Assembly (NCBI GenBank): GCA_002633005.1
Contig: NMRA01000393.1
Span: forward strand, 6,437-55,268
DNA length: 48,832 nt
Source of the DNA: Phoronis australis
Taxonomy: Eukaryota > Animalia > Phoronida
Reading direction: 5' to 3'
Position numbers and translations under genes: made by a program. The notes below the pieces were generated by a model. That model did not search any database and was not told where the DNA came from. It worked only from the letters and a program-made list of their open reading frames with translations. How positions within the stretch are numbered: position 1 is the stretch's first letter; the number at the start of each line of letters is the position of its first letter. This document shows positions 51-41,727 of this stretch, piece after piece.

Positions 51-32517
<32,467 letters not shown>

Positions 32518-34387
32518 CTGAAAAGTTTAAAAATAAGTAGCACTAAGTTTTATGCAAAGTCATCTCTGAATAAAGGTATAGTTATCACAGAAACTGTCCG
32601 TTTCATGCACTGCCAATGCTACAGATTTTGCGATAGAGTGTCTGAGATAACAATTTATTTAGAAGCATTTACAACACAGATAGGCAAACACTCCATTCAC
32701 AAACCGGATAAAACACTGTTACTTTGCTAGTGATTCAAGTTAGCCCAAAATTGATATTATTTCCGCTAGCATTTTTACAGCCAGACCACTTACTACAAAA
32801 GAGATCGAGCTCAGTAGAGGGGAAAGGTGCTTGTGACTTCCGAAAGGATTGTTTTTGCCAGTGAGGGTCAATCGCCTTTCCCTGCCCTGGACACTAGGCT
32901 TCGAAATGATCGAATGAATCTTGCAATACTGGGTATGCAATACTGGGCATATTATTATTTTGCACCAACTTTTACATACTCATGACATCTTTAAATGTGC
33001 TTAAGTTACACAATTTTGAAATCATGACCATAAAATACACTAATTCTGGACGCAAGAGTTCTCTGCACTCCCATTTCCAGGACATCCACCTTGACTGAAA
33101 AGCATTGTGAGAATTCCGCTAAGGACACCAATGGAGAATTATTACCATAATCTTTGATTTGAGATACAGTTGGCACAAACTAGCGCAGGATTAAGCAAAC
33201 AACTCTAATCCAACTTGAGTGTGGACATAACAGCCTTACCTCTGTGTGCTATGTGTGTGCATGTGTGTGAATGATGGAATACCCTACAACAGTGTTGAAT
33301 TAAGAACCATACATTCCAGACGGGGGAGGGGGGGTATTTGACAACATTTTTGACGGATACATCCGGAAAATTAGGACATCCACTCAGTTGAAGTGTCCCA
33401 TTTTAGGAAGATACTGTGCAAATTAAAGAAAATATTTTGTTCTAAACATCAACCTTTTCTAGGGGTTGATTCTATGAGCCTTAACCATTCGTTAGGATTC
33501 TTGAATTTTAACTGAGGAATCTTAATTAAAACACTTTTAGAAAACAAAGATGACACGTTGTTAAGTAAAAGTGTCTTTGGCAGCCATATTAAAGCCGATA
33601 TGTAGATTTGTGTAGTTGGAAAATGGAAATTTGTGTAGATTTTCAAACTCCCAAAGTGAATCTTTTGAAGTAAATTTTGATGGAAAAGACACCACTTAAA
33701 GAAAATTTGAGTAAGCAAAGGAACCCTTTTGTAGGGGAACCAGTCATGAAAAAGGCACCCTACTCAGTGACACAACAAACCAAATACTGAAAATCATTGC
33801 TGGTAAATCATCATTAACTCTTCCTGTGATGTTAAACATGGCAATTGTTGGAAAGTTGCATGTGTGGTAGTCACTATTTGCATCCCATTCACCCTACTTT
33901 TAAGAAAAGATTGTACAACAGTTATTGTCAATCATAGTTTATGAATTTTTTTTAAAACCATGCATTAATCTCGATACACTTAGATGACCAAATATCATTG
34001 ATTTGAAGCAAAACATGATACATTCTAACATCAAGTTCCGACAAGCCATGCCAAAGATTAGAACCCTCAGATGTGTCATGTTGAATATTGCGTAGAACAT
34101 GTTTGTCAGGGAACAGAACGCAATTTACTATAAAATTGATTCATTCGAGATCTTTTGTCAACAAAAGAAATGGATACAACTGTGAATGGAGCAAATAAAA
34201 TTACCCTTGATTGTCCACTGCAGTATTTTGAGGCTGAAATTTGCTGGAATTCACTAGTAGAAGTCTTACGACATCTTTTCTATACTTTCTAAAGCCTGGA
34301 AATAATAAATTCTTTGAAATGCTATTGTTTGCATTGTAATGGTCAAGGTTAGGTAGTATCAGGCTAGTAAACAAACGATCAGACAGC

Positions 34388-39587: not shown

Positions 39588-39604
39588 NNNNNNNNNNNNN
39601 NNNN
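39588..39604. other. Assembly gap preceded by a poly-G run
   Basis: N run at the left edge of the TRIM array. Confidence 1.
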
Positions 39605-40800
39605 AGAGGCTCATATAATTCACCGGAAGCACATCTACAACATTCCCCCCTTTCCTACGGAACGGGCACGCGACAGGAAGGTGAACACCAGGATGTCTCG
39701 CATACAGGTCATCAACGTCCCTTGGTACCTTTACCACCACAACACAGGTGAACACAAGGTCGTCTCTCATACAGGTCCTTGACTCCTGGAACCTTCCACG
39801 CGCTCTGTCCCGAGGTCCGTGGGTACTAGTTGGCAGTGCTTCATCGGTAGATCATCCCTTTGCCGACTACGCCATTTGTAGTAATAGCCGAGATTACTCA
39901 ACCCGGGGATCGAACCCGCGACCCCCATAAAACCGGCAAGCGTGCTAACCATTCAGCTAATAGGCAATTGCCCGTTTGCGAGTAGCTAACAGAGGCTCAT
40001 ATAATTCACCGGAAGCACATCTACAACATTCCCCCCTTTCCTACGGAACGGGCACGCGACAGGAAGGTGAACACCAGGATGTCTCGCATACAGGTCATCA
40101 ACGTCCCTTGGTACCTTTACCACCACAACACAGGTGAACACAAGGTCGTCTCTCATACAGGTCCTTGACTCCTGGAACCTTCCACGCGCTCTGTCCCGAG
40201 GTCCGTGGGTACTAGTTGGCAGTGCTTCATCGGTAGATCATCCCTTTGCCGACTACGCCATTTGTAGTAATAGCCGAGATTACTCAACCCGGGGATCGAA
40301 CCCGCGACCCCCATAAAACCGGCAAGCGTGCTAACCATTCAGCTAATAGGCAATTGCCCGTTTGCGAGTAGCTAACAGAGGCTCATATAATTCACCGGAA
40401 GCACATCTACAACATTCCCCCCTTTCCTACGGAACGGGCACGCGACAGGAAGGTGAACACCAGGATGTCTCGCATACAGGTCATCAACGTCCCTTGGTAC
40501 CTTTACCACCACAACACAGGTGAACACAAGGTCGTCTCTCATACAGGTCCTTGACTCCTGGAACCTTCCACGCGCTCTGTCCCGAGGTCCGTGGGTACTA
40601 GTTGGCAGTGCTTCATCGGTAGATCATCCCTTTGCCGACTACGCCATTTGTAGTAATAGCCGAGATTACTCAACCCGGGGATCGAACCCGCGACCCCCAT
40701 AAAACCGGCAAGCGTGCTAACCATTCAGCTAATAGGCAATTGCCCGTTAGCGAGTAGCTAACAGAGGCTCATATAATTCACCGGAAGCACATCTACAACA
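39605..40800 (-). mobile_element. Tandem-array TRIM (non-autonomous miniature LTR retrotransposon) with tRNA-like Pol III promoter in its LTRs; 386-bp unit, at least 3 internal regions
   Basis: 152-bp LTRs at 39877-40028, 40263-40414, 40649-40800 (plus a partial one ending at 39642) with TG...CA ends; 234-bp internal regions; minus-strand PBS TGGCGTAGTCGGCA 2 nt after the LTR; PPT GGAAAGGGGGGAA directly before the next LTR; box A TAGCTGAATGG and box B GGTTCGATCC inside the LTR. Left end lost in an N gap. Confidence 0.9.
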
Positions 40801-40972
40801 CTAAGTTGCCTAGGCTTAGCTTAGACAGCACCACCGTCGGCACCGACACCGTTCTCAACTGGCTGCAGTAGAGACGATGGTCATCCCGGCATAGGTATCG
40901 TTGGTCAAATTGGTGAACGTTGCGCCGTTAAAGCACAGGCGTTCTCAGCTTCTGATCGTCCCCAATACACTA

Positions 40973-41128
40973 TGTAGTAATAGCCGAGAGTATCCGACCC
41001 GGGGATCGAACCAGCGACCCCCATAAGAGTGCTACCATTCACTCAGCTAAATAGCCTAAATAGGCAATTGCCCTTTAGCGAGTAGCCAACAGAGGCTCAT
41101 ATGATTCACCAGAAGCACAACTACAACA
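40973..41128 (-). mobile_element. Diverged solo LTR of the same TRIM family
   Basis: Alignable along the whole LTR (TGTAGTAATAGCCGAG...CTACAACA), box B retained, flanked by 4-bp TSD ACTA (40969-40972 and 41129-41132). Confidence 0.9.
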
Positions 41129-41185
41129 ACTATATGTAATACTACAAGGTATGACACTCCCGACCAGAAATTTCATGGGTGCATC

Positions 41186-41727
41186 ACTTCAACCGTCCAT
41201 ATCAAACACAAAACTCAATAAATTTACACAAAACAAGGTTTCAACAAACCATTAGCAGTTGTGCTTTCTTCTAATATCATTCACAGTGTCCTGCTCCAGC
41301 CAGATCACAACAAATTCACAGTCAAATCACTACAATGTTCCCAAAAAACCAACACATCGAGCCTCCTTGGAAGGCTCGAGATCAAGGACAGTACGGCAAT
41401 TGCCGATTTGTCACGGACTGTCACGACATCGAGAACTCCATACTTAGCCAGACCATTTCATAACCTCCCGTGAGGAACCGGCAATTGTCGTCCATCAGTA
41501 ACTTATCGGAAAATTCCTTACTGTCCTTGACCTCGAGCTGTCCAAGGAGGCTCGATGCATGGGCTTTTTGGGAACATTTTTGTGCTTTGATCGCAAATTT
41601 GTTGCGATCTCGCTGGAGCAGGACACCGTGAATGGTATCAAAAGAAAGAACAATTGCTAAATGGTTTGTTGAAACCTTGTTTTGTGTAAATTTATTGAGT
41701 TTTGTGTTTGATATGGACGACTGAAGT
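41186..41727. mobile_element. Foldback/MITE with >200-bp inverted arms
   Basis: 41186-~41410 is the reverse complement of ~41500-41727; the outer ~70 bp are nearly perfect; no ORF; TSD not evident. Confidence 0.8.

Follow-up and report, generated by a model that had tools for sequence, protein, structure and literature searches.

A short, gene-less LTR retrotransposon of the Helenus type in an apparent tandem array in Phoronis australis

Positions 39605-40800 of the 48,832-bp stretch of Phoronis australis DNA analysed here (the window) have the appearance of a short satellite, with a period of 386 bp, 3.1 copies and 99% matches (Tandem Repeats Finder). The locus raises the question of whether this is a satellite, a SINE, or a mobile element of another kind, and – if it is mobile – how it is transcribed and copied, and whether its tandem arrangement is genuine. 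The array is located within a nest of repeats approximately 7 kb upstream of the most upstream matched exon (~32270-32520) of an ABCC1/MRP1-like transporter gene (51-32523, minus strand; intron-rich, with at least 14 exons matched), and lies on the same strand as this gene. One ABCC intron contains, on the plus strand at 8024-8833, a 269-codon frame resembling the end of a non-LTR reverse transcriptase. Gene structure and primer tRNA mark the DNA as animal, and protein comparisons using an ABCC exon, an NBD exon and this reverse transcriptase fragment gave no close named relative.

Read on the minus strand, the tandem units each consist of an LTR and an internal part, with neighbouring units sharing LTRs, such that the array is composed of three LTRs, three internal parts and one stub. 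The outer (5′) LTR (40649-40800) is 152 bp long with TG...CA ends, and is followed by internal part 1 (40415-40648; 234 bp), which is non-coding and holds a 32-bp internal duplication (87.5%). Then come inner LTR 2 (40263-40414), internal part 2 (40029-40262), inner LTR 3 (39877-40028), internal part 3 (39643-39876) and the first 38 bp of a fourth LTR (39605-39642), all on the minus strand. The three internal parts are identical, as are the two inner LTRs, which depart from the outer LTR at position 52 of the LTR (40363 in inner LTR 2). The stub ends at an assembly gap (39588-39604; 17 N) with 12 G in front of it, and because these close the array, its 3′ end, its target site duplication (TSD) and its true copy number are hidden. 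At the other end, the four bases adjoining the outer LTR (40801-40804, plus strand) are predicted to be one copy of a 4-bp target duplication, the partner of which would lie behind the gap; between the array and the next repeat there are 133 bp of low-copy, GC-richer DNA (40801-40933).

A single element measures 538 bp (152 + 234 + 152) and has no ORF, the longest stop-free frame being 83 codons and the longest frame from a methionine 61 codons. Behind each LTR, separated from it by two bases, is a primer-binding site (PBS; 40633-40646, 40247-40260 and 39861-39874, minus strand) with a 14/14 match to the complement of the tRNA-Ser(AGA/TGA) 3′ end with its CCA, and no chance matches were found in 100 shuffles of the window. 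The reference tRNAs are human rather than those of the host, the PBS pairing without a mismatch with the final 14 bases, CCA included, of tRNA-Ser-AGA-1-1 and TGA-2-1 (3′ ends printed in PMC10359600 and PMC3299991). A polypurine tract (PPT) of 13 purines directly abuts the next LTR in each unit (40415-40427, 40029-40041 and 39643-39655, minus strand). The preliminary description had resolved the apparent 386-bp satellite into LTR(152)-internal(234)-LTR units with common LTRs, denied it coding capacity, and placed a tRNA-Ser PBS at 39861-39874 and a PPT at 39643-39655; its lengths and coordinates all hold, and with the LTR tips, PBS, PPT, 538-bp length and absence of an ORF, so does its reading of the unit as a TRIM. 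Self-priming by the tRNA-like part of the LTR was also considered and is superfluous, since the PBS already fits tRNA-Ser.

A tRNA-like head and a 386-bp period suit a SINE or a satellite at first sight, in which case the TG...CA ends, PBS and PPT would be fortuitous. This is extremely improbable, and is refuted by the sharp LTR tips with varied flanks together with three 4-bp TSDs. Both tips are fixed independently of the assembly, because contigs stop there with unlike flanks: in four DNA runs from one sample, 31-40 contigs per run end at 40800 and 12-22 at 40649, with flank agreement of 0.38-0.43. Also against a SINE or satellite are the position of the PBS two bases behind the LTR, the PPT abutting the LTR, the absence of a poly-A or simple-repeat tail, and a solo LTR with empty sites. 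This diverged solo LTR (40973-41128, minus strand; 156 bp, 78.8% over 165 columns) is located 170 bp from the array within an abundant repeat that starts at 40934, and is flanked by the TSD ACTA (40969-40972 and 41129-41132, plus strand). Other copies of the host repeat contain the empty site, a joint from 40968 to 41129 that skips 160 bases and has a single ACTA, in 7-10 contigs per run (four DNA runs, one sample). Two further TSDs, CTTC and GGGC, were obtained from paired loose ends in RNA reads, which have four letters in common and not five, and which were assigned to one copy each by matching read numbers. The TSD is 4 bp long in 3/3 readable cases and 5 bp in none, each case representing LTR ends of family members. 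The preliminary description had suggested collecting TSDs of dispersed copies, and these three demonstrate a family that is dispersed and mobile; the DNA contigs are too short to span a dispersed two-LTR copy end to end. The host repeat of the solo LTR (40934-40972 and 41129-41185) is itself very abundant, with a sharp left end at 40934 where 84-103 contigs per run stop.

The family has both old and young members. Among 3325 contigs of DNA run X1 on the stretch – a number that includes neighbouring repeats – 420 match at 99% or more and 2215 at 90-99%. By summed contig depth, internal parts would number in the hundreds and LTR-like copies in the thousands, this sum of depth not being equivalent to a copy number. 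Internally deleted forms of the family are also present in RNA reads at 40540-40715, with skips of 38, 52 and 79 bases.

The sole mismatch at a lag of 386 across the array is between 40363 and 40749. A single substitution had been noted previously and assigned to the outer LTR (40749); it is indeed single, but the change sits in the inner LTRs. The letter of the outer LTR at 40749 is also present in the solo LTR at 40973-41128, and in a contig from run X5 (RNA by guess) that has no differences from 40673-40800. In the outer LTR the same letter completes a 6-bp stem with a 5-nt loop (40746-40762, minus strand) that is broken in the inner LTRs. Because the solo LTR and the X5 contig share this letter, and because it leaves the stem intact, we regard the outer LTR as carrying the older letter. 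One difference between outer and inner LTRs per 152 bases appears to mark a young insertion, regardless of whether the array is real.

Whether it is real bears on the earlier proposal that identical units reflect very recent amplification. The inner units are identical, but the argument from identity to recent amplification is weak, because a gap-filling loop looks the same and the family is mostly 90-99% alike. In such a loop, a single two-LTR copy with LTRs differing once would have been extended by gap filling, with the internal part and 3′ LTR repeated up to the gap; the array would then be an artefact of assembly and the element itself real. Inner LTRs that all carry the same derived letter, together with identical internal parts, are the output expected from a loop through 100 shared LTR bases; the array halts mid-LTR at the 17-N gap behind 12 G, and the window contains other gaps (861 N and a single N), as short-read assemblies do. 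Moreover, the joint from 40800 to 40415 (PPT to LTR) seen in contigs and reads exists in any two-LTR copy, and so does not prove that there are tandem units. Against an artefact, the remaining 17 N would fit a scaffold gap close to the 1.2-1.3 kb needed by four LTRs and three internal parts, if the assembler behaved as we suppose, and LTR-sharing TRIM arrays are common, with examples in LTR-11_DR of zebrafish, biv-TRIM, Cassandra and sugar beet, the last with 97 TRIM arrays in 38 families (PMC13570524). We consider the array to be probably genuine, and a gap-filling loop to be possible although rather doubtful. Unequal exchange between LTRs, following the change at position 52 of the 3′ LTR, is the most likely route by which a real array would have grown.

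To which class does the element belong? The preliminary description offered the name Helenus, and every sequence feature of animal Helenus is present: two LTRs with TG...CA ends, a length below 1 kb, no ORF, promoter boxes, a PBS, a PPT, a 4-bp TSD, dispersed copies and solo LTRs. Animal Helenus (TRIMp3) was described by Kojima in 2024, with sizes of 311-1263 bp, and there too a 4-bp TSD was found and Gypsy inferred as the likely partner; most Helenus do not have a full tRNA fold, like the present element (PMC10886601). Several aspects of our element are already in print (PMC10886601), including the Helenus class itself, priming by tRNA-Ser (in five bivalve families) and a tandem array in a Helenus element, zebrafish LTR-11_DR. 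Nearest in size (LTR/internal) are tRNA-Ser families of mytilids, Helenus-2_MyGa (144/226), Helenus-2_MoPh (156/268) and Helenus-2_LimFor (141/251), and there is no 152/234 family in Table S1 or Fig. S2 of that report. The PBS word is absent from the searchable text of its supplement, in which a control word was found; words running across line breaks escape such a search, but a PBS that opens a record does not. The Ser primer sites that it reports end in letters other than those of the present PBS. The element is also set apart by a run of four T (T4) between the boxes and no T-run behind box B. In the later literature we found Kojima 2024 itself and mentions of it, and no further account of Helenus. 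The earlier suggestion of a possibly new family is consistent with the absence of the element, by lengths and PBS, from the families in the accessible parts of Kojima 2024, and we assign it as a putative new family of the already described animal Helenus, distinguished from those families by its lengths and PBS.

Two other groups of TRIMs provide useful comparisons. The Cassandra TRIM of plants (Kalendar 2020, PMC7215508) similarly has a Pol III promoter in its LTR and forms arrays with common LTRs, and its self-complementary LTRs are predicted to fold the RNA back on itself as one large hairpin; the present LTR is also self-complementary. Cassandra differs in having a 5S-derived type 1 promoter, plant hosts, and a transcript start and end that have been measured, whereas the present element has tRNA-type boxes and is known from sequence. 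An Rfam scan of the element gave no 5S match up to E 10, so it does not belong to Cassandra or Ajax; by analogy, its mode of action would be that of Cassandra-type TRIMs, with a promoter of the tRNA type. The biv-TRIM of bivalves (PMC6934838) likewise belongs to animals and occurs both as solo repeats and in long arrays of up to 58 tandem repeats, but has no canonical PBS and, in the accessible description, no LTR promoter boxes; the present element has a clear PBS.

Box A is located at LTR positions 70-80 (40721-40731, 40335-40345 and 39949-39959, minus strand) and box B at LTR positions 113-123 (40678-40688, 40292-40302 and 39906-39916, minus strand), the latter within a short T-arm-like stem. 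The search patterns were what we take to be the consensus of each box. The positions of the two tRNA-type boxes agree with those first proposed, and the three array LTRs contain the only pairs of A and B boxes in the window, with 2 hits in 40 simulated windows. The boxes are 43 bases apart, as in tRNAs, and both also match the core letters of Helenus (TRGCY, YGG and GGTTC, as given in PMC10886601). Apart from T4 (40701-40704, minus strand; LTR positions 97-100), the unit's sense strand has no stretch of at least three T, whereas shuffles average 4.8 such stretches (P about 0.02), and T4 is a candidate leaky Pol III stop. A functional tRNA is ruled out: ARAGORN finds no tRNA in the element, and the Rfam scan gives just a T-arm match to tmRNA with an E of 0.28. 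The acceptor and anticodon parts of the tRNA-like region have decayed while both boxes have been retained. In the diverged solo LTR at 40973-41128, box B is kept, box A is disturbed and partly duplicated, and T4 is deleted.

This configuration makes it likely that the element is transcribed by RNA polymerase III. Alternatively, the boxes could be a relic of an old SINE insertion, with the copied RNA coming from Pol II, either from an LTR promoter or by read-through from the host. The loss of the tRNA fold would agree with such a relic, as would a TATA word at LTR positions 26-29, and in no Helenus has Pol III function been proven (PMC10886601). The boxes, in contrast, match the Helenus core letters at tRNA spacing while the acceptor and anticodon parts have decayed, and the sense strand is poor in T-runs. 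Furthermore, the summed family contig depth over the LTR peaks at 40715-40774, the part comprising the 6-bp stem, a palindrome and box A, and no DNA variants of the family lie in box A or the palindrome among the best 40 of 67 listed.

RNA data bear on the same point. In three raw RNA runs (11-13 million records), 517, 517 and 531 reads are on the element, and 63-68% of the reads run on into unlike sequence. Reads of the LTR are dominated by a few solo copies within host transcripts, and such read-through without a defined start favours Pol II. There is no pile-up of read starts or ends in these three runs, the library type of which is unspecified, such that short Pol III RNAs may be lost; strand bias was left out of account, both for this reason and because passenger copies dominate. 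The X5 contig is 416 nt long and corresponds to one 386-nt unit closed to a loop plus 30 bases, is approximately 98.5% like the window, and has no upstream flank at the LTR tip. It is compatible with an RNA whose two termini lie inside LTRs, and could also come from an array or from collapsed LTRs. On balance we consider a Pol II origin of the copied RNA to be unlikely, and prefer transcription by Pol III. A young and abundant family in a species with RNA data, with a single T4 in its LTR, makes both the Pol III transcription of Helenus and the passage of the stop in the first LTR, with termination in the second, addressable by mapping RNA ends.

The whole reading – a gene-less 538-bp animal Helenus TRIM, likely transcribed by Pol III and likely copied in trans by Gypsy – is one that we hold to be very probable. 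The anatomy, primer match, dispersed copies and TSD length were observed directly, and for transcription and copying we infer the following steps. To begin, TFIIIC would probably bind boxes A and B of the 5′ LTR, with Pol III starting 10-20 bases upstream of box A. T4 could then act as a leaky stop that is passed in the first LTR and obeyed in the next, so that the RNA would measure about 430 nt and begin and end with identical stretches of 40-45 nt, as minus-strand transfer requires. Human Pol III needs at least four T to stop robustly and sometimes reads through, and stopping is aided by hairpins upstream (PMC13385618 and bioRxiv 10.1101/2021.08.27.457903). This second step is conceivable and somewhat doubtful; a T4 inside the transcript would lower the yield of full-length RNA, and T4 is missing from the solo LTR, both of which argue against it. 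No T4 variants are present among the family variants listed from DNA and RNA runs. The alternative to a stop at T4 would be read-through to a T-run in the flank, and arrays would additionally give longer RNAs.

A third step would involve a self-complementary module that runs into box A. The segment concerned (40728-40751, minus strand) is 24 nt long with 10/12 Watson-Crick pairs, a score reached at 4 of 47,928 window centres including this one. Its centre is a perfect 10-bp palindrome (40735-40744, minus strand; LTR positions 57-66), with the 6-bp stem upstream of it, and this is the only palindrome of eight or more bases in the unit. The palindrome is retained in the diverged solo LTR at 40973-41128. 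The LTR folds with a z of -3.2, with none of 200 shuffles being equally stable, and a model of the transcript, with its start and end assumed, folds with a z of -2.8 and pairs the 5′ and 3′ copies of the palindrome. The same 10-bp palindrome is found once in the window outside the LTRs, at 41395-41404, and probably by chance; this copy is within a MITE-like element (41186-41727) with inverted arms of about 230 bp that are 82-97% complementary.

Helenus LTRs in Data S1 of PMC10886601 commonly contain a comparable feature. A self-complementary core of 8-13 bases is positioned right before box A in 54/76 non-insect animal LTRs, including 18/18 from chordates, 33/51 from bivalves and 3/3 from nemerteans, with 0/3 in brachiopods and 0/1 in ctenophores; wasp, fungal and plant LTRs were left out, and this tally was scored by eye with G-U pairs accepted, includes related families that are non-independent, and has no background rate. 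The cores differ in their letters (for example GGGTTAACCC, GAAGTACTTC, GGAGATCTCC, GAGCCGGCTC and GTCCGGAC, with GGCAATTGCC in the present element), and pairing is retained. The accessible main text of PMC10886601 makes no mention of a palindrome, hairpin or dimer.

What might such a module do? Among its possible roles we rank RNA pairing first, end-to-end or as a dimer, with an aid to Pol III stopping second and a protein-binding word last. The centre of the palindrome shows what we take to be a resemblance to an E-box. A protein-binding word is ranked low because the centre varies among relatives while the pairing stays. RNA of Ty1 and Ty3 dimerises via palindromes near its 5′ end (PMC6844567 and PMC11381356), and in a similar manner the self-complementary segment, which would be present at both ends of the element's RNA, could pair these ends, or could pair two RNAs for packaging. 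We put this step forward tentatively, as a serious possibility short of a probable one.

The module may also carry information about ancestry. Kojima 2024 favours separate origins of fish and mollusc Helenus (PMC10886601). It is plausible, though we would not call it probable, that the Helenus elements of fish, coelacanth, many bivalves and ribbon worm form one old lineage with the present element, in which a pairing module fused to box A serves as an RNA signal for Gypsy packaging or reverse transcription. A single lineage would replace the published separate origins, and the present host may add a phylum to it; should the module hold, it would help to trace where animal Helenus came from and would be a candidate packaging signal. 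As a separate observation, when both Ajax LTRs in Data S1 (PMC10886601) are scored by eye, their 5S boxes are seen to be preceded by a short self-complementary stretch, a run of T and a look-alike of a tRNA-type box A; descent of Ajax from a Helenus-like LTR would be in keeping with this.

The fourth and final step, which we consider highly probable, would consist of priming by tRNA-Ser at the PBS, plus-strand priming at the PPT, and insertion of the cDNA by a Gypsy integrase. The preliminary description had suggested a search for autonomous LTR elements with the same PBS, and Gypsy elements with this PBS were found elsewhere, without the similarity outside the PBS that would identify a partner. 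The PBS is present behind an LTR-like end in at least 118 metagenome loci, of which 19/118 continue into the next letters of the tRNA, several of these being copies of one family; the other 99/118 do not extend as in the tRNA and were set aside as chance. Two long pol frames were examined, in loci L123 and L142, and both have the order RT-RNase H-integrase of Gypsy, with protease matches weak or absent. These loci and others share with the present element the PBS and an LTR ending in TACA, but are autonomous, with a full 18-nt PBS, gag and pol, and no pair of A and B boxes in the LTR.

Outside the PBS, blastn shows no resemblance between the element and any of the 19 Gypsy-type loci (best E 0.69), none of which is known from the present host, and none of the metagenome loci listed (at least 118) is like the element at E 0.1. 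Viral contigs contain at least 120 matches to the 14-nt PBS; among the matches listed, none resembles the element or has LTR-like surroundings. There is no Gypsy pol within the window, and none of 60 open frames between 32.6 and 48.8 kb has a Pfam match above the cut-off. Judged by these sequence comparisons, Gypsy elements use the tRNA-Ser primer site, and loci of the L123/L142 type are not the element's partner. The Gypsy-type LTRs of L123, L142 and L187 each contain, close to their end and within the 70 bases upstream of the PBS, a second, partial copy of the primer site.
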